The position numbers were made by a program, and so were the translations under genes. 64,000 bases of DNA from positions 2,976,001 through 3,040,000 of the forward strand of contig OY760074.1 of NCBI GenBank assembly GCA_963663035.1, written 5' to 3'. This document shows positions 24,727 through 62,104 of this stretch, one piece after another. The DNA is from Acidobacteriota bacterium (lineage in GTDB: Bacteria > Acidobacteriota > UBA6911 > RPQK01 > JADFOI01). The notes beneath the pieces were generated by a model that had not been told where the DNA came from, ran no database searches, and worked only from the letters and a program-made list of their open reading frames with translations. Every line of letters begins with the position of its first letter. Position 1 is the stretch's first letter.

Positions 24727-24734
24727 TAACATCG

Positions 24735-31158: not shown

Positions 31159-31163
31159 GATAA

Positions 31164-31315: not shown

Positions 31316-31331
31316 TGAAGGCCAGACATCC

Positions 31332-39974: not shown

Positions 39975-40081
39975 GCCCCGTCAGAAGAGACAGGAACAAC
40001 CGAAAGCCCCCCCCACAGGGCCCGCCAATGTGCCCTTTGCCCTTTCATGCTCTCGTGCTAAGGTGAGAGTTCTGGCTAAAA

Positions 40082-40289
40082 GCCGGGATTATGCATAGGT
40101 TCTCGTAACGAAGTGGCGCAAGCGCCGCGATGACAAGGCGTGCGAGGGGTACCCGCCACGGGTCGGGCCCCGCAGGCGTACTCTTGCAGTACGCCGAGGA
40201 GCCCAAGGGGTACCCGCTTGCGGGTCGCACAACGCAGTCAGCGTGGATGATTGCGGCACTGCAGTAGAGAATTTATGCATACTCCCGGC
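40082..40289 (+). mobile_element. Structured repeat family A', copy 1 (208 bp)
   Basis: IR gccgggattatgcata / tatgcatactcccggc; core tgacaagg..caacgcagtca shared with family A; followed by TAA. Confidence 0.92.
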
Positions 40290-40317
40290 TAAGACATACC
40301 CCGAGTCAAGGGCACTC

Positions 40318-42561
40318 ATGCAGCCTTCGAAAAAAGACTATCTGAGCCATCTGAACGAACAGCAGAGATTTGCTGTCACCCAGACCGAAGGCCCAATGCT
40401 CATCCTGGCGGGAGCCGGGAGTGGAAAAACCCGAACGATCACTTACAAAATCGCCCATCTGATTGAGCAGGAAGTCTGCCGACCTGATCAAGTCCTGGCT
40501 GTGACCTTTACCAACAAAGCCGCTGAGGAGATGAGAAGTCGAGTCGAAGACTTACTGAAACATCTGGGTACTTCTCCTTTGGTTTGCACGTTTCACTCTT
40601 TCAGCGTTCGCGTGCTGCGGCGCTACGCTGACCTTATTGGGTATCGTACGGACTTCAGCATCTGTGACAGCGACGATCAGAAAAGGGTTATCAAGGCTGT
40701 CTACGAAGAACTCCACTTCACGGACAGCCAGCTCCCCATGAGAAAAGCTCGGGCGGCCATCAGTCGAGCCAAAAGCAATAACTGGGCCCCAGAAGAGTAT
40801 CTCGACAAGTCATCTGATCTCGCCCGCGAGGAACTTTCTCTCATCTACACCGCTTATGAGCGCTTTCTTTTGCGATCCAATGCCATGGATTTTGATGACC
40901 TGATCCTGCTAACCGTGCGCTTGTTGAAAAAGAACCATGAGGTTCGACAGAAATACGGTGAGTCCTACTCCCGTGTTCTGATTGACGAGTATCAGGATAC
41001 CAATCGTCCTCAGTATGACCTGATTAAGAATCTTACCGAGGTTCACCACAACATTACGGCTGTGGGAGACGATGATCAGTCCATCTATGGCTTTCGAGGC
41101 TCTGACATTGGAAACATTTTGCGCTTTGAAGCGGACTTCCCGGGAGCGACCATTGTCAAACTCGAGCAAAACTACCGCTCTAGTCAGAACATTCTGGATG
41201 CTGCAAGCAGCCTGGTGTCCAACAACCTGAATCGGAAGGGGAAAGTCCTCTGGACCGATCAACAGGCCGGTCAGCCAATCGAACTCTTCGCGGCGCCCGA
41301 CGCCAAGACTGAGGCAACTTTCGTTTCGAAGAAGATCCGCGAGCATCTCCAGAAGGGAGAAGAGGGGCTCGCCGTTTTGTATCGAACCAACTTCCAATCC
41401 CGACAATTTGAGGAAGCCTTTAGACGGTATGAGATTCCCTACAAGCTGATTGGAGGGACCAGTTTCTATCAGCGGAAAGAGGTCAAGGATGCACTGGCTT
41501 ACCTGCGAGTGGCCATGAATCCCAATGATAATGTCTCTTTCTTGAGGATTATGAATCGCCCCACACGAGGGATCGGCAAAGTGACAGAGGATCGCCTTCA
41601 TGGCAAGGCGCGAGATGAGCAGACAACCCTCTGGGAAGCCCTTCGAAAAGGCATAGAAGAGAACACTTTTCCCTCCCGAACACACCTGGTGTTGCAGCGT
41701 TTTTTCGAGCTCATATGCGAGTGTCAGGGCTTCCTGGAACTCCCTCTGTACCTATCCCTGGAAAAAATTCTGGAAGCCTGCGGCTATATCAAAGCCCTCA
41801 GGAGCGAGGATTCGGAAGAGGCTCATAATCGGACTCTGAATTTGGAAGAGTTGATCCTGCTGGCCAAAGAAAATGCAGAGCACGGATACACTTTTCAAGA
41901 GTTTCTCGACCACGCCGCGTTACGCTCCGAAGCGGACGATTATGACGAATCGGCAGCGGTCAGCCTCATGACCTTACACAATGCCAAAGGTCTTGAGTTT
42001 CCCATTGTTTTTCTAGTCGGTTGTGAAGAAGGACTCTTCCCACACAGCCGATCGGTGGCTGAGGATGATCTGGAGGAAGAGCGCCGCCTTTGTTATGTGG
42101 GGCTAACCCGGGCACAGAAGAAAATCTACCTCACCTATTCCCGTCTGCGTCGGTTTTTCGGCCGGGAGGGAGAAGAAATAAATCTTCCCAGCCGATTCTT
42201 ACAGGAGATTCCAGAACATCTCATCCGCGTCTCCTCCGGCCCTTTTCCGGTCGGTGAGTTTGTCCACCCCAGTGCCAGTCTTGGAGGATACCTGCAACGA
42301 CAAAAGCGTACCGGGACAGGTTTTGCAAAGACCCACGATTCAGTAGACAGCGTTCAAGGATTCTTGAACGAGCTCTCTCAGAAAAAAGGCAAATCAAAAA
42401 GCAATTTCATCTCCGGCGCGAGAATTGTCCACGAGAAGTTCGGTTACGGACAGATCCTTCGGGTCCAGGACACCGGCGACGACTTGAAGCTCACTGTACG
42501 ATTTCCGGGCCAGGGCATTAAACGGCTGCTACAGAGCTATGCCAAGTTGAAGCTGGTTTAG
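40318..42561 (+). CDS. pcrA: UvrD/PcrA DNA helicase
   Basis: LAGAGSGKT, TFTNKAA, IDEYQDTN, VGDDDQSIY, LEQNYRS, TLHNAKGLEF, EERRLCYV, C-terminal Tudor-like domain. Confidence 0.93.
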   Translation: MQPSKKDYLSHLNEQQRFAVTQTEGPMLILAGAGSGKTRTITYKIAHLIEQEVCRPDQVLAVTFTNKAAEEMRSRVEDLLKHLGTSPLVCTFHSFSVRVLRRYADLIGYRTDFSICDSDDQKRVIKAVYEELHFTDSQLPMRKARAAISRAKSNNWAPEEYLDKSSDLAREELSLIYTAYERFLLRSNAMDFDDLILLTVRLLKKNHEVRQKYGESYSRVLIDEYQDTNRPQYDLIKNLTEVHHNITAVGDDDQSIYGFRGSDIGNILRFEADFPGATIVKLEQNYRSSQNILDAASSLVSNNLNRKGKVLWTDQQAGQPIELFAAPDAKTEATFVSKKIREHLQKGEEGLAVLYRTNFQSRQFEEAFRRYEIPYKLIGGTSFYQRKEVKDALAYLRVAMNPNDNVSFLRIMNRPTRGIGKVTEDRLHGKARDEQTTLWEALRKGIEENTFPSRTHLVLQRFFELICECQGFLELPLYLSLEKILEACGYIKALRSEDSEEAHNRTLNLEELILLAKENAEHGYTFQEFLDHAALRSEADDYDESAAVSLMTLHNAKGLEFPIVFLVGCEEGLFPHSRSVAEDDLEEERRLCYVGLTRAQKKIYLTYSRLRRFFGREGEEINLPSRFLQEIPEHLIRVSSGPFPVGEFVHPSASLGGYLQRQKRTGTGFAKTHDSVDSVQGFLNELSQKKGKSKSNFISGARIVHEKFGYGQILRVQDTGDDLKLTVRFPGQGIKRLLQSYAKLKLV

Positions 42562-42832
42562 TGTCTCGTCCCATGTATACCCAGATGTTTGCTGATGGGG
42601 CTTGGGAGGGGAGATCAAGGAGCGAGGAGGAGGTGATGCCGGGACATCGACGACGACGAGCGACGCAGAGATCGCCCGCAACCCCCATCAGCCCGAAGGG
42701 TGGCGGCGGGACGGCATCGATTTCTTTGTCGCTCCTCCTCCACGATGTCACTGACATCGCGTCGTCGTCGCTTCGCGAACTCGACGCCGTCGCGTTCGCC
42801 ACAAACGTCATGGTATTCATGGGACGAGACAC
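42561..42832 (+). mobile_element. Structured repeat family B, copy B1 (272 bp)
   Basis: 21-bp IR gtgtctcgtcccatgtatacc / ggtattcatgggacgagacac; internal homology to B2-B4; begins on the pcrA TAG. Confidence 0.92.
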
Positions 42833-42836
42833 TGAA

Positions 42837-42860
42837 GCCCGCCTTATGCATAATGCGGGC
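42837..42860. repeat. 24-bp collapsed A/A'-type palindrome
   Basis: gcccgccttatgcataatgcgggc: A-type outer ends around the A' TTATGCATAA core. Confidence 0.75.
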
Positions 42861-42886
42861 TAGTACTGAGGTTATAAGGTTTTTCA

Positions 42887-44233
42887 GTGCAGGCACTCAA
42901 TAACTTTTTTTCAGTAGCTGTAGACTATGCCTGGGGCGCTCCCCTGCTCCTACTGTTATTAGGCGGCGGTTTCATCCTCACCATCTACTCCAGGTTCTTG
43001 CCCTTTGCCGGTGCCAAACACACCCTTGAAATTCTTCGGGGGAAGTTCGATCGGGAGGAGGATCCAGGTGACATTAGCCACTTCCAAGCCTTGAGCACCG
43101 CCCTCTCCGCCACCATTGGCATGGGAAACATAGGGGGAGTTGCCATTGCCATTACCCAAGGCGGTCCGGGAGCGGTTTTTTGGATGTGGATGGCAGCTCT
43201 TGTGGGGATGGCGACCAAGTTCTTCACTTGCACATTGGCCGTCATGTATCGAGGGAAAGATAGCCTGGGAGAAATCCAAGGCGGTCCCATGTACTACATC
43301 GAGCTGGGATTGGGCCAGAAATTCCGCTTCCTGGCCGTTTTCTTCAGCCTTTGTGGGACCATTGGATGTCTGGCCCTGTTTCAGGCCAATCAAGTGGCGG
43401 AGATCCTGACTGAGGCCTACGGAGTGGAAACCTGGATCACCGGCCTTGCCTTAAGTGTTCTGGTTGGTGTGGTCATTGTGGGTGGGCTGAAAAGAATCGC
43501 AAAGGTCGCCAGCCGTGTGGTTCCCACCATGTGTTTGCTGTACCTGGTGGTCTCTGTTTATGTGCTCGTAAGCCATTACCAGCTGATCCCTCAAGTCTTC
43601 TCTCAAATTCTTCACGATGCCTTCACCGGCTCAGCCGCCGCGGGAGGAGTAGCCGGTATTTCAATGATGACGGTCTTCCAGACGGGTATCAAGAGAGCCG
43701 CCTTCTCCAATGAAGCGGGTCTTGGGACAGCACCTATGGCCCATGGTGCAGCCAAAACCACCGAACCCGTCAGAGAAGGATTGGTGGCAATGATCGGTCC
43801 CTTCATCGACACCATCGGGATCTGTTCTTTGACTGCTTTCGTGATCTTGTCCAGCGGAAACTGGCAGGTCGGCGGAGTCAAGGGCGTTTCTCTCACGATT
43901 CAGGCCTTTGAGGCGGTTATGGGAGGCTTCGGGAAGGTGGTTCTGGTGGCCATTGTGCTGCTCTTTGGCATCTCCACGATGTTCGGCTACTCATACTATG
44001 GCAAGAAGTGTTTCAACTATCTCTTTGGCGCAGAAAATGGTCGAATCTATGAGTTCTTTTATCTAGCGATGCTTTTCGTAGGGGCTGTCTGGAGTGCAAG
44101 CCTGGTGGTCAACCTGATCGATACCGTCTTTGCGATGATGGCTCTGCCTAACATGCTGGCGACCTTACTTCTGGCTCCCAGGGTCATGGAAGCAACCAAA
44201 GTCTACCTCTCCCGCTATCGTCCCGCCTCTTGA
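42887..44233 (+). CDS. Alanine/glycine:cation symporter (AGCS family)
   Basis: ALSATIGMGNI, GGPGAVFWMW, GGPMYYI, FSNEAGLGTAP, PFIDT. Confidence 0.94.
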   Translation: MQALNNFFSVAVDYAWGAPLLLLLLGGGFILTIYSRFLPFAGAKHTLEILRGKFDREEDPGDISHFQALSTALSATIGMGNIGGVAIAITQGGPGAVFWMWMAALVGMATKFFTCTLAVMYRGKDSLGEIQGGPMYYIELGLGQKFRFLAVFFSLCGTIGCLALFQANQVAEILTEAYGVETWITGLALSVLVGVVIVGGLKRIAKVASRVVPTMCLLYLVVSVYVLVSHYQLIPQVFSQILHDAFTGSAAAGGVAGISMMTVFQTGIKRAAFSNEAGLGTAPMAHGAAKTTEPVREGLVAMIGPFIDTIGICSLTAFVILSSGNWQVGGVKGVSLTIQAFEAVMGGFGKVVLVAIVLLFGISTMFGYSYYGKKCFNYLFGAENGRIYEFFYLAMLFVGAVWSASLVVNLIDTVFAMMALPNMLATLLLAPRVMEATKVYLSRYRPAS

Positions 44234-44400
44234 GATTGATCGACCCAAGAGGGCTCTGCTCATGGTCTTGGGCAGTGAGCGTGTGATAAAATCGAAAGTT
44301 GAGGAACGCTTTTCACTCTGAAACGTAATTAAATCGAACACGATTGAGTGAAATGAAAGAAGAGGCGTCTGCCCCATATGAGACTAAGCTGGAGGTTTTC

Positions 44401-46050
44401 ATGGCCGAAGTAAAGAAGTTTCTGACATCCAAACAGGGAATCACTTTCCTGGCACTTTTCATCACTCTGCTGCTGGGAATCACCATTGGGACCCTTGTTT
44501 CCGATCGCGTGCTGAGTGCCCAAGAGAACGAGGCTCCGGTGGCGCTGTTAAAGATTCAAGGTGAAGGGTTGCCCTTGCTCTTAGATGAGACAGACTTTCT
44601 GGGGAAAGGATTTGCTCTGATCGCCAAGACCGTTGAGCCTGCCGTTGTCAACATCAGCACCACGGCGATTATCCGCACCAACACTCCGCAGCAAAGAGGG
44701 ACTCCTGAAGACCTTCGAGACTTTTTCGGAGAGGATTTCTGGGAGCGCTTTTTCGGACCCATGGCTCCTCAGGAGAGGAAGACAACCAGTCTGGGCTCAG
44801 GCGTGATCGTGGACAGCAGCGGATATGTCCTCACCAATTACCACGTAGTGGCTCCCTCTGTTACCCGTCAGGGTACGAGACGAATTGCTGACAAGATCGA
44901 AGTCAAGCTGTCCTCCGGCGAGACCTACCTGGCACGAATCGTCGGGGGAGATCCTGAGTCGGATCTGGGAGTTTTAAAGATCAATGCTCCTGACCCCTTA
45001 CCCTTTGCCAAGGTGGGTGACACCTCGAAGATGCAAGTCGGCGACTGGGTACTGGCCATTGGGAACCCATTCGGAGTCGGTCAGACCGTCACTTCAGGTA
45101 TCGTTTCGGCTACAGGACGGGTGATTCCCACCGCTACGATTTTTGGCGACTATATCCAAACCGACGCGGCCATTAATCCGGGAAACAGTGGTGGCCCGCT
45201 GGTGAATGTGCGCGGTGAGGTTATCGGAATCAACACCTTCATTCTCACCCGAAGCGGTGGCTCCCAGGGAGTGGGATTCTCGATTCCCTCCTCGGTCTTT
45301 ATCAATTCTTACAACCAGCTTGTGACCAAAGGAAAGATTGAGCGGGGCTGGCTCGGGGTCACCATGAACTCCTATCCGTTGTCCGAGGAGCTCAGTGAAT
45401 TCTTTGGTGTCGCCGGGAATGATCCCACGGGAATTCGAGACGGAGACGGAGTTCTCATAACCCAACTCATTGATGAAAAGGGCTCCCCTGCTGAGACCGG
45501 ACCCGCTTACCTGGCCGGCATGCGGGCCGAAGATGTGATTGTAAAGTTTGGGGACCGGGAGACCGAGATCACCTTTGATGTGCGTGTAGCAGTGGCTAAT
45601 ACTCCCCCAGGGGAAGTCGTTCCCGTGACCGTGGTTCGAAAAGGGGAAGTCCTGAATCTGACCGTGACACTGGCGGAAAGAACTCTTGACCAGCAGGAAC
45701 AAGAGGATACCGGACTTTCTTTCGAACAGCAAAGAGAGGAAGAACGAGACAAGGAAATCGGCCTGGAGTTCGAAACGCTGTCGGCTCAAGATGCGGAAAG
45801 ACTGAATATAGAAGACGAGAGAGGAGTGCTGATCCGTGACGTAGCTCCCGGGAGCTTGGCCGATGAAGCCGGGCTATCTCGTACTCAGGTGATTACCAAT
45901 GTCAATGGCATTCCCGTGAGTACTGCCCAACAGTTGTACGACCAAATCAATTCCATGGACTCCGGTGCCGGCGTTGTTCTTCGTGTGATTTGGCTGACCC
46001 CGCAAGATCGGCGACTCAATATCGGCTATGCTGCATTCACAAAGCCTTAG
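44401..46050 (+). CDS. HtrA/DegP-family serine protease with two PDZ domains
   Basis: LGSGVIV, TNYHVV, SDLG, QTDAAINPGNSGG; GGAGG before ATG 44401. Confidence 0.93.
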   Translation: MAEVKKFLTSKQGITFLALFITLLLGITIGTLVSDRVLSAQENEAPVALLKIQGEGLPLLLDETDFLGKGFALIAKTVEPAVVNISTTAIIRTNTPQQRGTPEDLRDFFGEDFWERFFGPMAPQERKTTSLGSGVIVDSSGYVLTNYHVVAPSVTRQGTRRIADKIEVKLSSGETYLARIVGGDPESDLGVLKINAPDPLPFAKVGDTSKMQVGDWVLAIGNPFGVGQTVTSGIVSATGRVIPTATIFGDYIQTDAAINPGNSGGPLVNVRGEVIGINTFILTRSGGSQGVGFSIPSSVFINSYNQLVTKGKIERGWLGVTMNSYPLSEELSEFFGVAGNDPTGIRDGDGVLITQLIDEKGSPAETGPAYLAGMRAEDVIVKFGDRETEITFDVRVAVANTPPGEVVPVTVVRKGEVLNLTVTLAERTLDQQEQEDTGLSFEQQREEERDKEIGLEFETLSAQDAERLNIEDERGVLIRDVAPGSLADEAGLSRTQVITNVNGIPVSTAQQLYDQINSMDSGAGVVLRVIWLTPQDRRLNIGYAAFTKP

Positions 46051-46317
46051 TACTCCCTTTCATAAATACGGTGACGTTTGCGGAAGGGGCTTGCGAGGCG
46101 AGATCGCGAAAAGAGGAGGAGGCGATGCAGGGCCATCGACGACGACGAGAGACAAAGAGATCGCCCGCAACCCCCTTCCGCCCAAAGGGTTGGGGCGGGA
46201 CGTGCCCATCTCTTTGTTTTCCTCCTCGCCGATGTCTCTGCATCGACTCGTCGTCGGGCCTCGAGCTGGGCCCGTCCCGCTCCCAACAAACGTTACCTTA
46301 TTTATGACGGTGAGTAC
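46050..46317 (+). mobile_element. Structured repeat family B, copy B2 (268 bp)
   Basis: About 31-bp imperfect IR gtactccctttcataaata / tatttatgacggtgagtac; TTA on both sides; begins on the htrA TAG. Confidence 0.93.
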
Positions 46318-46346
46318 TTAAGTACTCAGTGCCCAATGATGCACCT

Positions 46347-47834
46347 ATGGCCAAGGCCAAGGCATACAAAAACCTGATTGCCGGCGAATGGGTGAAATCC
46401 ACCTCCGGTCGCACCTTTGAAAATCGCAATCCTGCCGACCACCGTGAGCTCATTGGCTCCTTCCAGGACTCCACTGCGGATGACGTCGAGCAGGCAGTAG
46501 CTGCCGCCTGCCAAGCATACTCACCGTGGCGCCTGACTCCAGCGCCCAAAAGGGGGGAGATCCTCTTTCGGGTGGGGGAAATCCTTACCCGTCGCAAAGA
46601 AGAACTCGCATACGACATGACCCGAGAAATGGGAAAGGTTCTGCTGGAGACACGGGGAGACGTTCAGGAGGCCATCGACATGGCCTATTGGATGGCGGGT
46701 GAAGGGCGACGGATGTACGGTCACACGACTCCCTCAGAACTGCGGGATAAATTCAACATGAGTATGCGCATGCCGATCGGCGTCTGCGGAATCATCTCAC
46801 CCTGGAACTTTCCCATCGCCATCCCCAGCTGGAAGATCCTTCCTGCCCTGGTGTGTGGAAATACCTGCGTGTTCAAGCCTGCTTCCGATAGTCCGCTCAC
46901 TGCCGTACATTTCATGGAGGTCCTTGAGGAGGCAGGTCTACCGAAAGGGGTTGCCAATTTGGTCACGGGAACAGGAGCTCGGACTGGAAGTGCTCTGGTT
47001 GAACACAAGGACGTCAGGGTCGTTTCCTTCACTGGATCAACCGCTACGGGAAGAATCGTCGCACAAAAGTGTGCTCAGGACTTCAAGAAACATAACCTGG
47101 AGATGGGTGGGAAAAACGCCATCATGGTGATGGAGGATGCCAACCTGGAACTGGCAGTTGAGGGCGCCCTTTGGGGAGGCTTTGGTACCAGTGGACAGCG
47201 ATGCACAGCCTCTAGCCGGGTGATCGTTCACAAGAAGGTTTACAAAACCTTTGTTAATGAATTTATTGAGCACACCAAGAAATTGCGCCTTGGAAATGGG
47301 CTGGAACCCACGACTGAAATGGGTCCTGTAATCAACGAAAAGCAGAAGAAGTCGATTCTCCGGTGGATAGCTATAGGCAAGAAGGAAGGCGCGCGACTTC
47401 TCTGGGGTGGGAACCCTGTGGAGGAAGGAAGCTATCAACACGGCCATTTCATTGAACCCACTATCTTCGGAGATGTGGACCCGCAGATGCAGATCGCCCA
47501 GGAAGAGATCTTCGGTCCGGTAGTTTCTGTGATTCCCTGCTCCTCTTTTGAAGAGGCAATCGAATTCGGCAACAGTGTTCGATATGGCCTGTCCGCCGCG
47601 ATTTATACGCAGGATTTGAACAAAGCATTCGTAGCAATGAGGGAGATGGAGACGGGAATTTTCTACGTCAATGCTCCCACCATAGGGGCGGAAATACACC
47701 TGCCTTTTGGGGGAATCAAGGAGACCGGTAACGGTCACAGAGAAGCGGCAGAAGCAACTTTGGATGTGTTCTCCGAGTGGAAGGCAGTGTACCTGGATTT
47801 CAGTGGACATCTGCAACGAGCACAAATTGACTAG
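46347..47834 (+). CDS. NAD(P)-dependent aldehyde dehydrogenase
   Basis: PWNFP, FTGS, LEMGGKN, GQRCTA, EEIFGPV, PFGGIK. Confidence 0.94.
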
Positions 47835-47853
47835 AACAAGCACCTAAATCACC

Positions 47854-48966
47854 GTGAACATCGGCCTTCCCAAAGAAGTCAAAGACAATGAGTATCGCGT
47901 GGGATTAGTCCCTGCCGGTGTGCATGCCCTGGGGGAAGATGGCCATTCCGTCTTTGTGGAGAAAGGTGCCGGATTGGGTTCGGGCTTCTCCGATGAGGAA
48001 TACGCCATAGCAGGCGCCCAGATTGTGGAGAGCGCAAACGATCTGTTTGGCCGCAGCGACATGGTGGTAAAGGTTAAGGAACCCATCGAGGAGGAATATC
48101 CGAGACTTCGAGAAGGGCAAATTCTAGCCAGTTACTTGCACCTGGCACCCCTTCCAGAGCTAACCGAAGCTCTCTTGGCCAAGAAGGTCATCGGCGTGGC
48201 CTACGAGACAATCAGAAATGAGGGTGGGAGCCTGCCTCTGTTGACGCCCATGAGTGAGGTAGCGGGGCGAATGTCTATCACGGTCGGGTCCCATTACCTG
48301 CAAAAGCCCGAAGGAGGACGCGGTGTCCTCTTGGGTGGTGCCCCTGGAGTCCGCCCAGCTCTTGTATTGATCGTTGGGGGAGGTACCGTCGGGATCAACG
48401 CAGCCAAAATGGCACTTGGCTTGGGGGCGCAGGTTTGCATCCTTGACGTGGAAGTGGATCGCCTGCGAGTCATTGACGATCTTTTCCTCGGCCGGATCGA
48501 GACCCTCATCTCTAATACCTATAATATTGCCCAGGTGATCGAGGGAGCCGATCTCGTGATCGGGGCGGTGCTCATTCCCGGTGCCAACACACCCAAAATC
48601 ATTACCCGCAAGATGGTCTCCTCGATGCAGTCCGGGTCGGTGATCGTTGACGTGGCAGTGGACCAGGGAGGGTGTTGCGAGACAACGCGGCCCACCACCC
48701 ACAGTGAACCCGTGTACACAGTCGATGGAGTCGTGCACTATTGCGTCACCAACATGCCAGGAGCCATGCCACGGACCGCCACCTTCGCGCTGACCAATGC
48801 AACGGTTCCGTACATTCGTAAGATCGCCGCTTTGGGAATGAAGGATGCAATACAAGATAATCCTCTTTTAAAAGATGGAGTAAACGTGTACAAAGGTCAC
48901 GTTACCTTTAGACCCGTGGCCGATTCTCAGGCTTTACCTTATCGCGACCTCGATGAACTCTTGTAA
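47854..48966 (+). CDS. ald: Alanine dehydrogenase
   Basis: [40 protein letters not shown]. Confidence 0.96.
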
Positions 48967-49780
48967 CAGTTGGGTCTACATAGTTGATCCACCGAAGTCG
49001 GGAGTGGAGAATATGAAGCTCGACAGAGAACTTCTTCACTGGGTAGAGAAGTGTTCGGCCAAGATCACGGTGGTCCGATTCTATCGCTGGGCGGTGCCCA
49101 CAATCTCTCTTGGGAAACACCAGAAGGCTGAGGAAGCAGTAGACCAGATCTATTGCCAGCGGGAGGCCATCCCCATCGTACGTCGACCGACAGGTGGTCG
49201 AGCCGTCTTTCACGACGATGAGCTCACCTATTCACTCGTATCCAACCATCGCCAGTACTTCTCATTGGAGAGCGTGGGAGAAACCTATCGAGTGATCGCT
49301 GCCGGGCTGAAGGCGGGACTACGGCGCCTGGGGGTCTCTGCCCAGTTGGCTGAGCCGTCCCCCCACTCGCCACTGGTTCCACAGTCAGGACGGCAGAATC
49401 CCTGTTTCTTGTCCCCCTCTCAGTATGAACTACTGCTGCGTGGCTACAAGATAGTGGGAAGTGCGCAGAGGCGCTTGAAACGAAGTTTTCTGCAGCACGG
49501 CTCGATTCCACTGCAGGTCGACTATCCGCAGATGGCTGCAGCCCTTGGTATCCCGGAGAAAGTGCTCAGGAAGAACCTTCTCTCGATCTCCGAGGCCAGT
49601 GGACATCAGGTCTGTTTTGCAGCCTTGTGTAAAGCACTCAAAGAGGGTTTGGAGGAAACTTTCCAGGTTCAGCTGAGAATCTTTCGTCAGGATGCGAGCG
49701 CACCTCAATTCTCCGCCTTGCGACTTTTACGGCAAAATTGCGTCCCATTAGACGATTATACTTACAGGGTTCGCCAATGA
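48953..49780 (+). CDS. Lipoate-protein ligase / octanoyltransferase (LipM-like)
   Basis: [30 protein letters not shown]. Confidence 0.88.
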
Positions 49781-50844
49781 CAGGACAACAACCTTCATCA
49801 CTCCTGAATGAACGTGCTCGGAATGTTCTGAAAGCATTAATCCAGGAATATGTGCGCGGCAGCAAGCCGGTCGGCTCTCGTCGCTTGGCAAAGCACTATG
49901 GGGAGGGACTCAGTTCGGCCACCATCCGCAATGTGATGGCCGAGTTGGAACGAGTGGGTTTTCTCACCCAGCCCCACACTTCGGCCGGAAGAGTTCCCAC
50001 CGCGAAAGGCTATCGCTTGTATGTCGACTCTCTCCTGGACACCAGAGACCTACCCAGTCGCGAAGTAGATCGGATTAGGCAGAGCTTAGAAAACGAGGCG
50101 GATCCTGGAGAATTGATGAGCAAGACCTCGCAGGTTCTTTCTCTCTTATCGAACAATGTGGGTTTTGTCCTGGCTCCCACTATTTCCCATGCCGCCATGA
50201 AGCATATTAAGTTTGTCAGGATTGCTCAGCAGCGGATCCTGGTGATTTTGGTGACGGGATCAGGACTCGTTCAACATCGGCTCATCCAGCTAAAGCCAGA
50301 TCTTACCCAGAGAGAGCTAGACCAGGCAGGTCGCTATCTGGTCGCCCAATTTGAGGGGCAAACACTGCTAGATATCCGACGTGAGTTACTTCGTCTTATG
50401 TTAGAAGAGAAGTCTCTTTACGACCGCATGCTGCAAAATGTCATCTTGCTTGGTGCTGCCAGCCTGGTGAAATGTGAAGGTGAGGAGGCTGAGGAATCAG
50501 AAGTGTACCTGGGAGGTACCGCTCGCATCATGCAAAAGCCTGAATTAGCCGATATCAAGAGCATGACCGCTCTCTTTGAGACCATCGAGGAGAAAAGTCG
50601 GCTGGTGAAAATCATTTCTGAATGCCTGAAGACAGTTTCCTCCGGGCCAACAGTCAGGATAGGTCTGGGAAAACACATCCCCGGGATGGGGGATTGGGCA
50701 TTGATTTCCTCTCCCTATCTGTACCATCACAAGGTCATAGGCAGTCTGGGGATTTTGGGACCATCTCGCATGGAATATGAGAAGGCAATTAGCCTTGTTG
50801 ACTATGTGGCCAAACTCTTCAGCAAACTCTTGAGCAACAACTGA
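49777..50844 (+). CDS. hrcA: Heat-inducible transcription repressor
   Basis: PVGSR, SSATIRNVM, QPHTSAGRVPT, LGILGPSRMEY; ATGA overlap with the upstream stop. Confidence 0.96.
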   Translation: MTGQQPSSLLNERARNVLKALIQEYVRGSKPVGSRRLAKHYGEGLSSATIRNVMAELERVGFLTQPHTSAGRVPTAKGYRLYVDSLLDTRDLPSREVDRIRQSLENEADPGELMSKTSQVLSLLSNNVGFVLAPTISHAAMKHIKFVRIAQQRILVILVTGSGLVQHRLIQLKPDLTQRELDQAGRYLVAQFEGQTLLDIRRELLRLMLEEKSLYDRMLQNVILLGAASLVKCEGEEAEESEVYLGGTARIMQKPELADIKSMTALFETIEEKSRLVKIISECLKTVSSGPTVRIGLGKHIPGMGDWALISSPYLYHHKVIGSLGILGPSRMEYEKAISLVDYVAKLFSKLLSNN

Positions 50845-50850
50845 TTATGA

Positions 50851-50874
50851 GCCGGGCTTATGCATAAGCCCGGC
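50851..50874. repeat. 24-bp perfect palindrome, collapsed family A' element
   Basis: gccgggcttatgcataagcccggc flanked by TGA and TAG; equals the two A' ends fused at TATGCATA. Confidence 0.85.
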
Positions 50875-50897
50875 TAGAGGAGTGTTCAAAGACACTT

Positions 50898-51473
50898 ATG
50901 GCGAAAAACAAGCCCCCCGAAGAAGAGAAAGAAGAGTCTGAAAACCAGCCACCGGAACTCTATCAAGAATCCCTAGAGAGGCTTCAGAAGGAAAAAGATG
51001 ACCAGTACGACTTGTTACTCCGCAAGCAAGCCGAGCTGGAGAATTATCGGAAACGAGTTGAAAAGGAGAAACAGGAATTGCGCCTCTCGGTCCAGGCTCA
51101 GGTCATCGAGAGGTTATTGCCCATCCTGGACGCCTTTGAGAAAGGACTCTCCAGTTTAAAGGAAGTATCCGGAGATTCTGAGCTGCAGACCTACAGTGAG
51201 GCTTATGATCTACTGTATCAGGAGATTCAGTCAGTCCTCCAGAAGTTTGAGGTGACTGAAGTACCCGGAGTCGGAACTAATTTTGATCCCAATGTGCATG
51301 AAGCGGTGGTCAGAAAAGTAACAACTGAGCACGAAGAGGGCGAAATTCTCGAGGAATATCGCAAAGGTTACAAAATCAACGACCGACTTTTGCGTCCCTC
51401 CCAAGTCAGTGTAGCTGTCCAACCGGACGAGATTTCCGTTGCCCATGGCGACCGGGAAGGAGGGGAGGAGTAG
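50898..51473 (+). CDS. grpE: Nucleotide exchange factor GrpE
   Basis: AELENYRKR, FDPNVHEAV, KGY..RLLRP. Confidence 0.96.
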   Translation: MAKNKPPEEEKEESENQPPELYQESLERLQKEKDDQYDLLLRKQAELENYRKRVEKEKQELRLSVQAQVIERLLPILDAFEKGLSSLKEVSGDSELQTYSEAYDLLYQEIQSVLQKFEVTEVPGVGTNFDPNVHEAVVRKVTTEHEEGEILEEYRKGYKINDRLLRPSQVSVAVQPDEISVAHGDREGGEE

Positions 51474-51548
51474 ACTTCTCACCCTCCTTGAAAACCACTC
51501 ACAGCGATCTTATGATTATTTTTGTGGCAAGCCACTTAGGAGAGTAGT

Positions 51549-52664
51549 TTGGCGAAAAGAGACTTTTACGAAATACTGGGTGTCAATAACGATGCCGGTG
51601 AGCAGGAAATCAAGCGCGCTTACCGTAAATTAGCCATCCAATACCATCCCGATAAGAATGCTGGGAGTAAGGAAGCGGAGGAGAAATTCAAAGAGGCTGC
51701 CGAGGCCTATAGTGTCCTGAGTGACCGCGAAAAGAGAGCTCGCTACGATCGCTTCGGGCATGCCGGCGTCAGCTCTGGAGCTGGAGGATTTGAAGGATTC
51801 GATCCCGACACATTCTCCGATTTCAGCGACATTCTGGGTGATTTCTTTGGCTTCGGGGATGTCTTTGGAGGCTCCCGAAGACAATCAAACCGCCCCCGCC
51901 GCGGTGCCGATCTTCGATTCGACCTTGAGCTGAGTTTCGAAGAGGCGGTGTTTGGCATAAAGACGAAGATCAAGATTCCCCGCCAAGAGACTTGTACGAA
52001 CTGTCATGGCTCGGGAGCCGATCCGAAGCAAGGAACTACCACCTGCACCGCCTGTCAAGGACAAGGCACCGTTCGATACCAGCAAGGCTTCTTCACTATT
52101 CGTCAAACCTGCTCCACCTGCCGTGGTAGTGGACAACTGATCAAAAAGGCTTGTTCCCAGTGCAGAGGCGAAGGACAAGTCCGGAAAGAAAAAGTGCATG
52201 AGATCAAGATTCCCGCCGGAGTAGACGAAGGCTCTGTCTTGAGACTGGTCAGGGAAGGAGAGGCCGGGCCCAACAGCGGTCCCAGCGGGGACCTGAATAT
52301 CGTGATTTCAGTCGCAGAGCATCCCTTTTTTAAGCGCCACGACAACAACATTTATTGCGAGATACCGATCACTTTCTCCCAGGCCGCTCTGGGCGGAGAG
52401 ACTACTGTCCCTACAGTCGAGAAACCGGAGAAGATCAAAATTCCACCAGGAACCCAATCCGATACTGTCTTCCGCTTGAAAGGCCGAGGGATTGTGAGCG
52501 TTAACGGGCACGCCAAGGGGGATCAATTGGTACAGGTCAAAGTCGTGACCCCCACCAAATTGAATAAGGAACAAAAGGAACTCCTCCGCCAGCTGGATGC
52601 CATTTCAGGAACAGCCCAGGAATCGAGTAATCTCTTTGAAAAAGTCAAAGAGATGCTGAGCTAG
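51549..52664 (+). CDS. dnaJ: Chaperone DnaJ
   Basis: J domain HPD, G/F region, four CxxCxGxG. Confidence 0.97.
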
Positions 52665-52711
52665 GCGAGAGCCTAGTGTCGCTTCCCGATTTCTGGTTCG
52701 AGGTTCTGGTG

Positions 52712-52833
52712 GCCGGTGTTCAGGAAGGTCAAGATCGAGGCCGCACAAGCCCTTCGACCGCAGGCGTAGCCTAAGCTACATCGAGGATCGAAGGGCGCGG
52801 GAAAAAAAAAGATTGGCCTTCCTGGACACCCGC
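52712..52833 (+). mobile_element. Structured repeat family C, copy C1 (122 bp, uninterrupted)
   Basis: IR ggtgttcaggaaggtcaa / ttggccttcctggacacc; inner stems cccttcga/tcgaaggg and gtagc-cta-agctac. Confidence 0.88.
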
Positions 52834-52846
52834 ACAAGAGACTGCA

Positions 52847-53586
52847 ATGTATCGTGCACTGATTCAGCTAGGCGATCAAGGACAAGTTACCCTTCCAGAA
52901 GATGAAGTGCATCATCTGATACGGGTACGCCGGGCCAGAGCTGGAGACCGCTTTGTGGGACTGGACGGCACAGGTAGAGTGTACCTGTGTTCTCTAGAGG
53001 AAACCCAGGAGGGGTGGCATGGCACCATTCTCAAGGAGTTGCAGGAGCAGGGGAAACCTCCTCTGCGAGTGACTTTGGCACAATCTCTCATCAAGAAAGA
53101 CAAGTTTGAGTGGGTCCTCCAAAAGGCAACTGAAGTCGGGGTCTCAGAAATCGTGCCTCTGATCACTGCCCGAACCGAGCTTCTGCTCAATCCCGAAAGA
53201 GAAGAAAGGAGGATGAAGCGCTGGCGCAAGATTCTGCTGGAGGCGGTCAAGCAGTGCGGTCGCGCTCAATCCCCCAACTGGCTAAGCCCACGGGGTTAAG
53301 GGAGTTTCTGTGTGCCTCATCAGAGGACTTCAAGCTTGTTCTTGATGAAATGGGGGGACTTCACTTGAAAGAGCTCATTGACGGCCATCGAGATGCCGTC
53401 TCCTGTTTGGTCATAGTGGGGCCCGAGGGCGGCTGGGATGAAAGCGATCGCCAGCTTCTCCGAGAGCAGGAAGTTCCCGCAGTAAACTTGGGAACTCGCA
53501 CCTTGCGGGCTGAGACGGCTCCCATAACAATACTTTCCATCCTTCAGTACGAGCTGGGGGATTTGTTCCCAACGACCCAGCCATGA
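52847..53586 (+). CDS. rsmE: 16S rRNA m3U1498 methyltransferase, one frameshift near 53268 (probably an error)
   Basis: HHLIRVRR, QKATEVGV, EAVKQCGR in one frame; VGPEGG, LRAETA in the next; one A missing in caa(a)tcccc. Confidence 0.9.
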
Positions 53587-54410: not shown

Positions 54411-54806
54411 CGGGTGTTCAGGGAGGTCAGGATCGAGGCCGCACAAGCCCTTCGACCGCAGGCGTAGCCAAAGTACTCCCTTTCATCAATACGGCAACGT
54501 TTGCGGGTGGGGCTTGCGAGGCGAGGTCGCGAAGGGAGGAGAAGGCGATGTCAGGGACATCGACGACGACGAGAGCCAAAGAGATCGCCCGCAACCTCCA
54601 TTCGCCAAAAGGGTTGGGACGGGACGGGCCCATCTCTTTGTTGCTCCTCCTCGGCGATGTCAGGGACATCGACTCGTCGTCGCGCCTCGATCTGGGCTCC
54701 GTCGCGTTCCCAACAAACGTTATCGTATTGATGAAAGTGAGTACTAAGCTACGTCGAGGATCGAAGGGCGCGGAGAACGAAGAGCCTGGCCTTCCTGGAC
54801 ACCCGC
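54410..54806 (+). mobile_element. Structured repeat family C, copy C2, interrupted by B3
   Basis: 54410-54472 and 54745-54806 rejoin to match C1; 22-bp terminal stem; GCTA on both sides. Confidence 0.9.
54473..54744 (+). mobile_element. Structured repeat family B, copy B3 (272 bp), nested in C2
   Basis: IR gtactccctttcatcaatacg / cgtattgatgaaagtgagtac; flanks AAA and TAA. Confidence 0.93.
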
Positions 54807-54811
54807 GCTAA

Positions 54812-55019: not shown

Positions 55020-55020
55020 T

Positions 55021-57729: not shown

Positions 57730-57843
57730 TAATTTCTTCCCTTCCAAGGATTAGGTTCCGGGTTATCCGGTGCGGCCCATTCTAGATGGGGACCCTGACG
57801 ATCCAGACATCACCAGAACCGATCTCTCAAAAATCTCTTTGAA

Positions 57844-57891: not shown

Positions 57892-57897
57892 TGTTAA

Positions 57898-60754: not shown

Positions 60755-61394
60755 GACCAATAAGACAACTGCCAACCTTTTGGCCCGTGACGTAGAGCTG
60801 CGGGTAGGTGATCGCTGCATCGTGAGCACCAAGCGGGGGGTTGAGCTGGGTCTTGTGATCAATGGACGCAAGGCTGAGAATCTTGATCTGGGTGAGTCCA
60901 AAGTGAATAAGGCTCTGAGGAAAGCGACTGAACGGGACCTTTATCTTCATGAGAAGAAGAAAGACCAAGAGGCTCACGCCCAGCAATTATGCAGGAAATT
61001 GATTAGAGCCCAGAAGCTCCCCATGAAGCTCTCCAAAACTGAGTATATCTTTGACGGCAGCCGGGTCATTTTCTATTTTACCTCAACGCGGCGTGTTGAT
61101 TTTCGAGAGCTGGTGAAAGGCTTGGCTCGTCGATTGCGGGCCCGAATCGAAATGCGCCAGATTGGTGCACGTGATGAGGCCAAGTTAATTGGTGGAATGG
61201 GGTGCTGCGGTCTAGGTGAAAACTGCTCTGCCAAGTTCTTGAAGGAATTAAGATCTGTCAGTGTCCGGGCAGCCAAGGAACAAGGTCTGACGGTGAACCC
61301 TGGCCGTTTATCCGGCATGTGTGGGCGACTGAAGTGCTGCCTGAATTATGAGGTCAATGCTACGGGCAGCTGTGGGAGTGGAGCCTGCGGTTAG
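60726..61394 (+). CDS. ricT: PSP1-domain / RicT (YaaT)-like protein
   Basis: RVDFRELVK, RIEMRQIGARDEA, SGMCGRLKCCLNYE; tmk-holB-ricT synteny. Confidence 0.88.
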   Translation: MLEIVTVKFETNKTTANLLARDVELRVGDRCIVSTKRGVELGLVINGRKAENLDLGESKVNKALRKATERDLYLHEKKKDQEAHAQQLCRKLIRAQKLPMKLSKTEYIFDGSRVIFYFTSTRRVDFRELVKGLARRLRARIEMRQIGARDEAKLIGGMGCCGLGENCSAKFLKELRSVSVRAAKEQGLTVNPGRLSGMCGRLKCCLNYEVNATGSCGSGACG

Positions 61395-61663
61395 TGCTCA
61401 CTTCCATAAATACGGTGATCTTTGTTGCGGCCGCTGCGCCCACGGATTCAAGGCGCTCCGACGAGTCGATACGGAAAATCGGCGAGGAGAAGCAACAAAG
61501 AAGACGGGGGTGCAGCGCCGCAACCCTTTGGGCGGAGGGGGGTTGTGGTCGATCTCTTCGTCGCTCGTCGTCGACGATGTCCGGACATCGCCTCCTTCTC
61601 GCTCCTCGACCTCGCCTCACAAGCCCCCTCCGCAAATGTCACCCTATTTATGGAAGGGAGCAC
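61394..61663 (-). mobile_element. Structured repeat family B, copy B4 (270 bp)
   Basis: IR gtgctcacttccataaata / tatttatggaagggagcac; fills the gap between two convergent TAG stops exactly. Confidence 0.92.
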
Positions 61664-62104
61664 CTAACCCTCTCCTTCTGTGGCTTTCTCGTTTTCTTCT
61701 TTCAGTTTCTTGCCCCACTCTTGAAAACGCTCCACCTCAGCCGAGGAATGATTGCTCTCGACAAATTGTTCGCAGACTTCTATCGCCTCCAGAAAGGCTT
61801 TTTGCTTCTCTAAGGCCCGAATCAGTTTCTCATAGGCTTCTGCCCACTTAGGGTTATATGTCACCGCCTGTCGGTACCTCTCCGCTGCAGCCTTGAAGTT
61901 GTCACGGCGGTAGTAGAAATCGCCGACTTCTACATGCTCTCTAGCCTTCAGGGGGTCAGGTTCGGGAGGAGTTTCCTGAACCTGCTCATCCGTGGGATCC
62001 ACCCGAATGAGCACTGGTTTCCTCTTGGATTGCTGTTCCTGGCCCAACAGAGGACAAGCAAGAAGCAGGAGAAAAAAGGCATGAAAATAGATGAAAGACC
62101 TCAT
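61664..62104 (-). CDS. Secreted TPR protein
   Basis: Signal peptide, VGDFYYRRDNFKAAAERYRQA TPR. Confidence 0.8.
   Translation of the reverse strand: MRSFIYFHAFFLLLLACPLLGQEQQSKRKPVLIRVDPTDEQVQETPPEPDPLKAREHVEVGDFYYRRDNFKAAAERYRQAVTYNPKWAEAYEKLIRALEKQKAFLEAIEVCEQFVESNHSSAEVERFQEWGKKLKEENEKATEGEG

Follow-up and report, generated by a model that had tools for sequence, protein, structure and literature searches.

Bacterial genomes harbor several described families of MITEs, among them Correia/NEMIS, ERIC, RUP, BOX, and Nezha, and the interiors of such elements are usually treated as junk between transposase-binding ends. The eukaryotic Tourist elements (PIF/Harbinger-Tourist) duplicate TAA or TTA. 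According to PMC2516522, members of the IS1031 group commonly have insertion sites of three nucleotides. The repeat considered here, family B, resembles bacterial MITEs in that it is small, apparently non-coding, multi-copy, and mostly intergenic, carries terminal inverted repeats and a short target duplication, and folds into a long stable structure. Unlike them, it is better conserved in its interior than at its ends (0.83-0.93 against 0.64-0.67 in the outermost 18 bp, across 40 sequence clusters), its conserved fold is a four-way junction with an inter-domain helix and not the energy-minimum rod, and it has relatives across the phylum, with no partner insertion sequence found. Family B is a real non-autonomous mobile repeat of ~275 bp and can be described as an unusually structured MITE, the best-conserved part of which is its interior. 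Judged by titles and the openings of abstracts, none of the papers found on miniature inverted repeats in Acidobacteria concerns such an element, and MITE catalogues such as the supplements to PMC11602168 might list the family.

The copy under study is one of four in the window, that is, the whole 64,000-nucleotide stretch of DNA that was analysed (Table 1). The 3.59-Mb genome carries 39 full-length copies and approximately 20 partial or derived loci, and family B has matches in 27 of the 41 genomes of relatives and, across the phylum, in 33 of 301 Acidobacteriota genomes sampled; both tallies count an unpublished genome as matching, the family B locus of which was excluded from the two alignments used below. 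Plasmid and phage collections held no family B match, so carriage by either was rejected. The copies are intergenic, and at least 11 of the 39 begin at the stop codon of the upstream gene according to crude ORF calls. Their orientation is unbiased with respect to flanking genes (16:10) and to the direction of replication as inferred from GC skew (18:21, p = 0.75). The extremes of GC skew, at ~3.20 and ~1.22 Mb, lie away from ~2.0 Mb, where copy orientation appears to switch. The sequence suggests that family B lacks coding capacity. A shared reading frame would be absent because close copies differ by 1-2-nt indels in their hairpin loops, and a coding reading in which the ATG of hairpin 1 would follow a Shine-Dalgarno-like GGAGG was rejected on the same 1-2 nt loop differences, as its frames are not common to close copies.

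Table 1. Positions of family B copies in the window and of the parts of the copy under study.
Feature	Position	Strand	Sequence	Remarks
Family B copy	42558..42833	+	ends GTGTCTCG...	Other subfamily; nhmmer 254.5 bits
Family B copy	46047-46319	+		Copy under study; element proper 46050-46317
Target-site duplication, left copy	46047..46049		TTA	Flanks ...AAGCC TTA [element] TTA AGTAC...
Stem I 5' arm (left terminal inverted repeat)	46050..46080	+	GTACTCCC...ACGTTTG	Pairs with 46288-46317
Stem II 5' arm (X)	46080..46101	+	GCGGAAGGGGCTTGCGAGGCGA	Pairs with 46161-46181
Tract a	46113..46122	+	GAGGAGGAGG	Core of 11-mer GCGAGGAGGAG; top-conserved 10-column block (0.93, 40 clusters)
Hairpin 1	46123..46138	+	CGATGCAGGGCCATCG	CGATG-loop-CATCG; local stem 97.6% paired
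Tract b	46139..46149	+	ACGACGACGAG	Consensus 11-mer GCGACGACGAG; kept in distant relatives
S	46150..46161	+	AGACAAAGAGAT	5' strand of helix S:S'
Apical region	46161-46207	+		Between S and S'
Stem II 3' arm (X')	46161..46181	+	TCGCCCGCAACCCCCTTCCGC	5' half of "apical domain"
Hairpin III	46182..46190	+	CCC-AAA-GGG	At four-way junction
Stem IV 5' arm (Y)	46189..46207	+	GTTGGGGCGGGACGTGCCC	3' half of "apical domain"; pairs with 46268-46287
S'	46208..46218	+	ATCTCTTTGTT	3' strand of helix S:S'
Tract a'	46219..46229	+	TTCCTCCTCGC	Consensus CTCCTCCTCGC
Hairpin 2	46230..46245	+	CGATGTCTCTGCATCG	CGATG-loop-CATCG; local stem 96.3% paired
Tract b'	46247..46257	+	CTCGTCGTCGG	Consensus CTCGTCGTCGC
Stem IV 3' arm (Y')	46268..46287	+	GGGCCCGTCCCGCTCCCAAC	Pairs with 46189-46207
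Stem I 3' arm (right terminal inverted repeat)	46288..46317	+		Pairs with 46050-46080
Target-site duplication, right copy	46318..46320		TTA	Flank sequence; filled versus empty site
Family B copy	54471..54746	+		Sits in centre of another palindromic repeat
Family B copy (B4)	61392..61665	-		Most degenerate of the four in the window

Two related genomes that lack the element at this locus (L033 and L039) carry AAGCCTTAGGAGCC at the same gene end, with the empty site AAGCCTTAGG where the studied genome and a further relative (L031) have TTA-element-TTA. More generally, A precedes the terminal GT and T succeeds the terminal AC in 87 of 101 copies, the other 14 being unparsed, and among these 87 copies the flanks share an identical 3-nt sequence in 36, an identical TA in 17, and neither in 34. 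From flank composition we calculate a chance expectation of ~18 three-nucleotide matches, against the 36 observed. Family B inserts between the C and the G of CTWAG or CTAG and duplicates TWA or TA, a cut-and-paste signature known from IS5-family and Tourist-like elements. In this respect it is like the IS5 family (IS1031/IS427 groups), from which it differs in that no such transposase with matching ends was found for it.

That search covered part of the transposase genes in the studied genome and in five relatives, and no partner with matching ends was found among them. In the studied genome, PF01609 is represented by two multi-copy elements (35 matches in all) whose ends are unrelated to those of family B, and both were rejected as partners: a 476-aa element of ~30 copies has the ends AGCCCGGATTATTCATAA, and a 325-aa element has other ends again. 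PF13340, PF13359, and PF13358 had no match in the studied genome, and PF13340 had none in five relatives rich in the element. Among 30 PF01609 loci sampled in five relatives (L159-L188), B-like ends flanked the transposase in none; one of them (L163) holds an ordinary full-length B copy, and these loci gave one chance-level hit (E = 0.18). Solo ends in the studied genome have no adjoining transposase, with the sole exception of one that is abutted by the unrelated 476-aa element. Two larger candidates for a parent element were likewise rejected, as a 1.5-kb split copy (genome 3446402-3447949) proved to be a B copy into which an IS3-type element has inserted, and a 1.1-kb end pair in another genome (G242) encloses host-type Hsp20-like and DksA-like ORFs and no transposase.

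Family B also shares traits with the IS200/IS605 elements, their palindrome-associated derivatives, and REP/RAYT systems, in that its subterminal hairpins are conserved, its stems keep structure and not sequence, and the studied genome has two Y1 transposase genes. It is unlike them in having long terminal inverted repeats and a target duplication and in showing no replication-direction bias, and its genome's two Y1 genes have no CGATG...CATCG hairpin within ~800 bp.

The initial annotation had drawn attention to the order of four trinucleotide tracts, a-(hairpin)-b ... a'-(hairpin)-b', in which a would pair with a' and b with b' across each other. This order is present in all four window copies, and the minus-strand copy B4 is indeed the most degenerate, as seen from its tract a (GCGAGAAGGAG) and the reverse complement of its b' (GCTCCGACGAG). 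In an alignment of 91 copies from more than 15 genomes (A1), the crossed partners form G-C or C-G at the four diagnostic pairs in 81/88, 83/89, 84/87, and 78/87 copies, and the same columns are left unpaired as G.G or C.C by nested pairing in 83/87, 86/87, 87/88, and 85/89. In the consensus, the crossed complementarity is 11/11 for both a:a' and b:b', and crossed cells are 84.6% paired at register 0, compared with 41-48% at slides of one or two columns and 63-67% at slides of three. The crossed tract order is thus an inherited structure of the family and not the chance property of one copy. Each tract holds only approximately three units, and all four are copies of one 11-mer, GCGASGASGAG, distinguished by two bases and arranged around two conserved hairpins. 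Because the four copies differ at two positions, the question of crossed versus nested pairing rests on 2 x 4 bases. The further suggestion that the two hairpins could pair with each other holds for their 5-bp cores, but of 59 distinct hairpin pairs only 2 are complementary over their full length (the pattern used failed to parse 24 of the 91 copies). The local hairpin stem reaches 6-7 bp in 32 of these 59 pairs, and distant copies have locally compensated variants of hairpin 2, namely CAATG...CATTG and CGATAC...GTATCG.

The pairs maintained through compensatory change do not form the simple mismatched rod with which the crossed pairing had been contrasted, but a four-way junction together with the local hairpins. 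The ~31-bp terminal inverted repeats pair with each other as stem I, in which 18 of 19 aligned pairs are changed on both sides and 91-96% of cells are paired (95.8% and 90.8%). Each of two domain stems has one arm paired with one half of the region previously taken as an apical domain. Two-sided changes were found in 12 of 20 pairs of stem II (92.3% paired; column 41:160, for instance, is GC in 46, UA in 34, AU in 2, and CG in 2) and in 12 of 17 pairs of stem IV (92.2% paired), and for the two extended stems together in 24 of 37 pairs, with a covariation of 0.242 against 0.099. The stem pairs of hairpin III are present in 88-89 of 91 copies and never covary. As a whole, the four-way-junction structure is 93.4% paired compared with 84.1% in shuffles, and its covariation of 0.327 was reached by none of 500 shuffles (0.165) and compares with at most 0.084 in slid controls. 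Between the domains, S pairs with S' in a helix that formally crosses stems II and IV. On A1 alone, two-sided changes were seen in 1 of its 11 pairs, and on an alignment that includes 20 distant copies (A2) in 7 of 11, with 78.6% of cells paired against 69.6% in shuffles and a covariation of 0.359 against 0.243 (0/500), that is, at phylum depth. These patterns of sequence change support a conserved fold composed of the outer stem, two domain stems of ~20 bp, the junction hairpin, two local hairpins, and S:S'.

Energy calculations point to another structure, as the minimum-energy fold of single sequences is the rod. In ViennaRNA, where pseudoknots are unscored, the rod lies below the conserved four-way fold alone by 8.6-32.7 kcal/mol as RNA and by 4.1-20.0 kcal/mol as DNA, and the folding z-score is -9.1 as RNA and -6.6 as DNA. 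Rod-specific pairs are broken in other subfamilies (column 154:179 is unpaired in 57/91 copies and column 156:177 in 44/81). Mismatches in the stems are more often G.T (261) than A.C (120), which hints weakly at one folded strand, and selection on such a strand, in place of templated correction, could account for the covariation of the stems.

Several family B stems are kept by compensatory change across a bacterial phylum in a conserved fold that differs from the thermodynamic optimum. It may be that family B is a phylum-wide mobile element with a conserved, formally pseudoknotted, multi-junction single strand, built from the outer stem, two domain stems of equal length, S:S' between the domains, and a third junction that bears two hairpins. 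Its movement or function would depend on the folding of this strand, and the crossed 11-mers would let the hairpin junction exchange into a second state of pairing. We consider this reading doubtful; if true, family B would not be a passive MITE but a transposon dependent on its structure, or a structured nucleic acid that is mobile. If selection does act on the folded strand, it would be a natural example either of a transposon that needs its single strand to fold in a complex way or of a structured RNA that is mobile.

A more specific possibility is that a:a' and b:b' form in a transcript or in a single DNA strand as side-by-side helices bridged by hairpins 1 and 2, in a pseudoknot or a switch state alternating with the rod. 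The exact complementarity in ~90% of the 91 copies is what such helices would predict. The crossed duplexes have a better energy than the nested ones in 84 of 87 close copies, the energy gap between rod and four-way fold is of a size that two 11-bp helices could fill, and the conservation of S:S', itself a crossing helix, means that non-nested contacts are not foreign to the element. However, covariation between a and a' and between b and b', which had been named beforehand as the deciding observation, was seen neither in A1 nor in A2. On A1, the 84.6% pairing of crossed cells compares with 85.8% in shuffles, all 500 of which reach that value, and the crossed covariation is 0.047, compared with 0.055 for shuffles and 0.026-0.058 for slid controls; two-sided change is absent from all four diagnostic pairs, and 19 cells are uncompensated. 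On A2, the crossed covariation of 0.103 does not, in our assessment, stand out from that of slid controls (0.051-0.090).

At the edges of the 11-mers, nested pairing is more frequent than crossed pairing in three of four columns (55/87 versus 10/88 at column 72, 79/87 versus 47/88 at column 71, and 80/89 versus 48/87 at column 128), and column 117 goes the opposite way (16/88 versus 33/87). In one lineage, changes are uncompensated or lead toward the nested state, with b reading TTGACGAGGAG at two loci (L010 and L141) and a having the consensus sequence of b at a third (L149). The 20 distant copies keep a and b constant as a' and b' drift, and the energy of their crossed duplexes goes from -33.5 to -23.2 kcal/mol, against -20.8 for the nested ones, so that the advantage is largely gone; the crossed duplex is the better one in 13, the nested one in 5, and 2 are tied. 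Mini elements of the form a-hairpin-b', which lack a' and b, persist at three loci. The copies show no orientation bias with respect to transcription or replication, and in the geometry of the junction a and a' each head into the junction of the hairpins, which their pairing would dissolve. Missing covariation is compatible with a switch, since a base shared by two alternative pairings is not free to covary. Weighing these points, we consider helices between the crossed tracts unlikely. A pseudoknot or switch of the crossed tracts is unproven, and their complementarity is more likely due to a repeated motif or to history. Of the switchable, strand-exchanged architecture first suggested, covariation upholds a non-rod, possibly multi-state fold and lends nothing to a:a' and b:b' pairing. 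Attention shifts from the tempered pseudoknot reading to S:S', where a testable non-nested pairing is located elsewhere in the element.

Alternatively, the tracts may pair in the nested manner (a:b' and b:a') with G.G and C.C mismatches that are selected, in which case the crossed complementarity would be incidental; such mismatches might weaken a long perfect palindrome or duplex, and so avoid hairpin nucleases or double-strand RNases, or might mark a strand. On A1 the nested pairs have a covariation slightly above that of the crossed ones (0.060, versus 0.052 in shuffles, 1/500). The nested helices would run into covarying neighbours, S:S' and column 128:208 (GC 72, AU 7), and at each of three four-way junctions their strands would lead cleanly from one helix into the next. 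The mismatches extend across the order at least, and distant copies still have C.C in b:a'. Against this, the nested covariation on A2 (0.094) does not stand out from slid controls (0.068-0.089), a' and b' of distant copies drift without a defined mismatch pattern, and nuclease avoidance is unsupported by anything tested. Selected mismatches seem to us as improbable as crossed helices.

The explanation toward which we lean, with modest confidence in it as a whole, combines a structured MITE, a recognition module built from the 11-mer, and a crossed complementarity that is historical and not obligatory. The four copies of the 11-mer point inward, two flanking each local hairpin, and lie in internal loops rich in purines on the left-domain side and in pyrimidines on the right-domain side. 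Along the left arm the GG form precedes the CC form, and along the right arm, read from its own end, CC precedes GG; it is because of this order on the two arms that a:a' and b:b' look like crossed Watson-Crick helices. The module 11-mer-hairpin-11-mer would be conserved as sequence and probably binds a protein, to judge from its conservation, for example a mobilising transposase or an accessory factor. Exact crossed complementarity would then represent the historical state of an order-level lineage and not a pseudoknot that has to form.

It is possible that this complementarity has been sharpened by hairpin-templated (quasi-palindrome) correction, acting on one inverted-repeat pair at a time. 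Template-switch mutagenesis as described in PMC7202029 can produce "compensatory" change between nearby inverted repeats free of selection, and it is a mutational process and not an element family. In a family B derivative at genome position 3261184, 21 nt match the complement of the stem II 3' arm exactly, which we read as the signature of template switching. If such correction has occurred, family B would hold a rich natural record of quasi-palindrome mutagenesis and would serve as a warning that covariation in repeats alone does not prove function. Inversion, or hairpin-to-hairpin recombination, was rejected as the origin of the swapped order, as inverting the inter-hairpin segment of a perfect palindrome fails on paper to yield the order seen.

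Finally, family B could be primarily a structured RNA gene that is incidentally mobile, with the junction and the purine-rich module forming an RNA- or protein-binding scaffold such as a sponge for a factor that binds GGA or Shine-Dalgarno sequences. The left-domain module GCGAGGAGGAG-GCGATG...CATCG-NCGACGACGAG is conserved phylum-wide, several stems covary strongly, and the stems have the excess of G.T over A.C noted above. However, no Rfam 15 family matched in window positions 40000-58500, which at a permissive threshold gave three chance-level hits (E = 0.31-1) that lie far below the gathering score, none of them in a B copy. The lack of bias relative to flanking genes also speaks against an RNA gene, and the terminal repeats, target duplication, and deletion derivatives are features of a DNA transposon. 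Such a gene appears very unlikely to us. Three metatranscriptome runs contained small shares of family B words, and two of these runs (X18 and X19), in contigs built at 90% likeness, carry 50-113-nt pieces of the family at 90-95% identity, with uncovered parts carrying no information. The pieces derive from relatives or from copies other than this one, and they end within the element. They attest presence in RNA libraries only, and DNA carry-over is possible.

The stretch at 46050-46317 is a single copy of an imperfect palindrome of ~275 bp (family B) and fills the gap exactly from the stop codon of an HtrA-like gene to the start of an aldehyde dehydrogenase gene. Its left half consists of GAGGAGGAGG (tract a), a CGATG...CATCG hairpin (hairpin 1), ACGACGACGAG (tract b) and ACAAAGAGAT; after the central region follow ATCTCTTTGT, CCTCCTC (tract a'), a second CGATG...CATCG hairpin (hairpin 2) and CGTCGTCG (tract b'), an order that the initial annotation had given correctly. 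The host genome is one contig of 3,594,683 bp with a G+C content of 54.4%, in which the window spans 2,976,001-3,040,000, and the nearest public relatives of a neighbouring gene belong to uncultured Acidobacteriota. Two rounds of nhmmer yielded 119 matches at 61 loci, 39 full length and the others partial or rearranged. Comparison of the tracts agrees with the earlier remark that the fourth window copy is the most degenerate. There are at least four subfamilies, with divergence greatest at the outermost ends (GTACTCCC, GTGTCTCG, GTGCCTCG, and GTGCTCCC). A close relative, whose neighbouring gene encodes a 94% identical protein, carries a copy (locus L031, 278-555) at the same TTA site as window 46047-46320; this copy is of a different subfamily, has the ends GTGCTCCC and clusters with the window's fourth copy. 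Two subfamilies at one site suggest that a hot target was hit independently or that copies have undergone conversion.

Coordinates of repeats and other features in the window and in the host genome
Feature	Position	Strand	Source
Family B copy	window 42558-42833	+	nhmmer
Family B copy	window 46047-46319	+	nhmmer
Family B copy	window 54471-54746	+	nhmmer
Family B copy, most degenerate of the four	window 61392-61665	-	nhmmer, tract comparison
Second repeat family, presumably family A of the initial annotation	window 40076-40293, 54806-55023, 63594-63750		
Second repeat family, further copies	window 18580-18716, 24571-24727, 31161-31316, 57895-58102		
Third palindromic repeat, ...GCCCTTCGACCGCAGGCGTAG / CTACGTCGAGGATCGAAGGGC..., empty copy	window 52712-52833		
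Third palindromic repeat, flanking a family B copy	flanks of window 54471-54746		
18-nt tandem array, ~five units	window 10367-10485		
147-nt tandem duplication, 99% identity	window 15631-15898		
Y1 (IS200/RAYT-type) transposase gene, L248	genome 346384-346728		
Y1 (IS200/RAYT-type) transposase gene, L249	genome 2324722-2325042		

Family B is a mobile non-coding repeat that duplicates TWA or TA at its target. Among 101 copies surveyed, 87 have A before the terminal GT and T after the terminal AC, although these two positions are no evidence because the search pattern demanded them. C precedes this flank in 52 of the 87 copies, and G follows it in 53. Identical three-base flanks, mostly TTA or TAA, occur in 36 of the 87, compared with ~18 expected by chance from flank composition, and identical TA flanks occur in 17. 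In agreement with such duplication, the gene end that carries ...AAGCC TTA, the element, and TTA... in the present genome and in one close relative is empty in two related genomes (...AAGCCTTAGGAGCC...). The copies are intergenic, and crude ORF calls place the start of at least 11 of 39 at the upstream gene's stop codon, which fits a target containing TAA or TAG. Derivatives include three mini copies of 165-168 bp with fused hairpins (a-hairpin-b'), two one-domain forms of 169 bp, one copy without the right-domain loop, and a copy outside the window (genome 3446402-3447949) split by an IS3-type element. The latter has two ORFs in a frameshift arrangement, the ends TGACCTTGCCCCC...GGGGGCAGGTCA, and flanking GGAC repeats.

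Family B works like a bacterial MITE with an IS5/Tourist-type target and agrees with one in most tests; the missing test is a partner transposase, none with matching ends having been found in the searches made. Tourist/PIF-Harbinger duplications resemble those of family B. For the IS1031 group of the IS5 family, three-base duplications are described as common (PMC2516522). Family B does not belong with the IS200/IS605 or REP-type elements, and curated RNA families returned no match. Compared with MITEs it is unusual in that its interior is better conserved than its tips, its conserved fold is branched and unlike the energy minimum, and its relatives extend across a phylum. Listings from the literature searches contained no account of an element of this kind from Acidobacteriota.

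Alignment to the family model reveals that the four tracts are four copies of a single 11-mer, all oriented to the centre, with two flanking each hairpin. Consensus a is GCGAGGAGGAG and b is GCGACGACGAG, with a' and b' as their exact reverse complements; since a and b differ at two positions and no more, the choice between crossed (a:a' with b:b') and nested (a:b' with b:a') pairing concerns eight bases. At these diagnostic bases the initial annotation rightly saw Watson-Crick crossed pairs and nested mismatches: in the 91-copy alignment, 78-84 of 87-89 copies have G-C or C-G as the crossed pair, and 83-87 of 87-89 leave the nested partners unpaired. The crossed complementarity is conserved, without covariation. 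The pseudoknot or switch built on it gained no support from the covariation check proposed with it. None of the four diagnostic pairs changed on both sides (19 cells are broken). Crossed pairing stood at 84.6%, compared with 85.8% when partners were shuffled among sequences (500 of 500 shuffles reached the observed value), and covariation at 0.047, compared with 0.055 in shuffles and 0.026-0.058 in slid registers. The nested alternative is paired less (69.7%), although its covariation is above that of the crossed one (0.060 versus 0.052; 1 of 500 shuffles reached it), and at the 11-mer edges the nested partner is paired oftener in three of four columns. In one lineage b has become TTGACGAGGAG, and one copy there has GCGACGACGAG as a, matching the nested partner; these changes are opposite to those expected from the crossed model. 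When 20 far more distant copies were added, neither crossed (0.103 versus 0.051-0.090 in slid registers) nor nested covariation (0.094 versus 0.068-0.089) stood out. Duplex energies tell the same story: crossed and nested pairing come to -33.5 and -21.3 kcal/mol in 87 close copies (crossed better in 84, nested in 1, 2 ties), and -23.2 and -20.8 kcal/mol in the 20 distant copies (13, 5, and 2). The distant copies keep a and b as GCGAGGAGGAG and NCGACGACGAG while a' and b' have drifted; the left-arm module is thus conserved for its own sake and not as a partner of a' and b'. A crossed-tract pseudoknot or switch is unlikely.

The conserved fold is branched and not a rod. On the 91 copies, RNAalifold returned an outer stem, a left arm paired with the 5' half of the 'apical domain' and a right arm paired with its 3' half, both CGATG...CATCG hairpins staying local. 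This structure has 93.4% of cells paired (84.1% in shuffles), 614 cells changed on both sides (216 in shuffles), and a covariation of 0.327 (0.165 in shuffles, at most 0.084 in slid registers), with 0 of 500 shuffles reaching any of these measures. After lengthening by hand, the domain stems have 20 and 17 pairs and a pairing of 92%; both sides changed in 24 of these 37, several with three to four pair types (columns 41:160, for example, are GC in 46 copies, UA in 34, AU in 2, and CG in 2). Pairs exclusive to the rod are broken in other subfamilies (columns 154:179 unpaired in 57/91, 156:177 in 44/81, 56:270 in 54/88). The rod is the minimum-energy fold of 12 representative copies, and imposing the domain stems raises the energy by 8.6-32.7 kcal/mol (RNA parameters) or 4.1-20.0 kcal/mol (DNA parameters). 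The local hairpin stems reach 6-7 bp in many copies, with loops unrelated between the arms. Of 59 distinct hairpin pairs, 2 bear out in full the suggestion that the two hairpins can also pair with each other. Hairpin 1 remains CGATG...CATCG in the distant copies, where hairpin 2 is changed to CAATG...CATTG or CGATAC...GTATCG. The two near-equal-length domain stems, the outer stem, and a 3-bp hairpin form a four-way junction with zero spare bases. The tracts occupy large internal loops whose two strands are both rich in purines in the left domain and both rich in pyrimidines in the right one.

A conserved helix that crosses this fold covaries at phylum depth. It pairs ACAAAGAGAT with ATCTCTTTGT (strands S and S'), and because S lies in the left domain and S' in the right, it formally crosses both domain stems. 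In the close family its covariation is almost nil (1 of 11 pairs), and four pairs only break. With the distant copies included, S:S' is 78.6% paired versus 69.6%, 7 of 11 pairs have changed on both sides (ACAAAG/CTTTGT to ACGCCG/CGGCGT, for instance), and covariation reaches 0.359, compared with 0.243 in shuffles and at most 0.18 in slid registers. One reading is that the helices coexist, with S:S' placed where the equal-length domain stems end on the inner side; if the tracts paired in the nested way, each strand would run cleanly from one helix to its neighbour at three junctions. Alternatively, the element alternates between states. The broader intuition of the initial annotation, that more than terminal-repeat recognition is at work and that some pairing is non-nested, is supported, with the non-nested pairing in the domain stems and S:S' and not in the tracts.

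The 11-mer-hairpin-11-mer module appears to be kept as sequence, and most simply may serve to be recognised by a protein, for instance a putative transposase. That a:a' and b:b' are exactly complementary in the order-level lineage is probably historical. Should each tract be free to take a GAG or a GAC form, two of the six ways to place two switches on a uniform ancestor would yield the crossed pattern, which by itself therefore carries little weight. The complementarity may have been sharpened by hairpin-templated correction of a single inverted-repeat pair per event, without need of a pseudoknot. One derivative (genome 3261184) repeats exactly, over 21 nt, the complement of one stem arm, which we read as a signature of template switching, a mechanism described for quasi-palindromes (PMC7202029). 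Templated correction could in principle produce 'compensatory' changes in all stems without selection, and selection on a folded strand would leave the same pattern. The excess of G.T over A.C in stems (261:120) leans weakly to a folded top strand. The absence of orientation bias, both against co-directional flanking genes (16 same, 10 opposite) and against replication direction from GC skew (18:21, p = 0.75), leans the other way. Orientation does vary along the genome (17 minus and 6 plus at 0.4-1.9 Mb; 11 plus and 5 minus at 2.1-3.5 Mb), with a switch that does not match the GC-skew extremes (~3.20 and ~1.22 Mb).

Within the same order-level neighbourhood family B was found in 27 of 41 genomes, and phylum-wide in 33 of 301 sampled (25 of 185 genera); each tally includes one unpublished genome (G017), on which none of the conclusions depends. 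The plasmid and phage collections searched contained no copy. In a distant genome, ~100 matches to the 17-mer end CTAGGAGCCNGTCCGAG were seen with two mismatches allowed. Inverted pairs of this end are spaced ~58, ~196, and ~278 nt apart, and one pair (locus L244, G242:C35:8464-10190) encloses Hsp20-like and DksA-like ORFs.

The ends of the second repeat family resemble those of a 1.6-kb insertion sequence encoding a 476-aa DDE_Tnp_1 transposase, with ends AGCCCGGATTATTCATAA, CTAG flanks, and ~30 genome copies. Family B favours the centre of the third palindrome (CCTAAGC) as a target: of its 39 full copies, at least 8 lie exactly there. Finally, ~480 nt downstream of the Y1 gene L249 we note an inverted repeat whose arms, TTCACGATGTCTC...GAGACATCGAGAA, stand 29 nt apart and resemble the family B hairpin stems.
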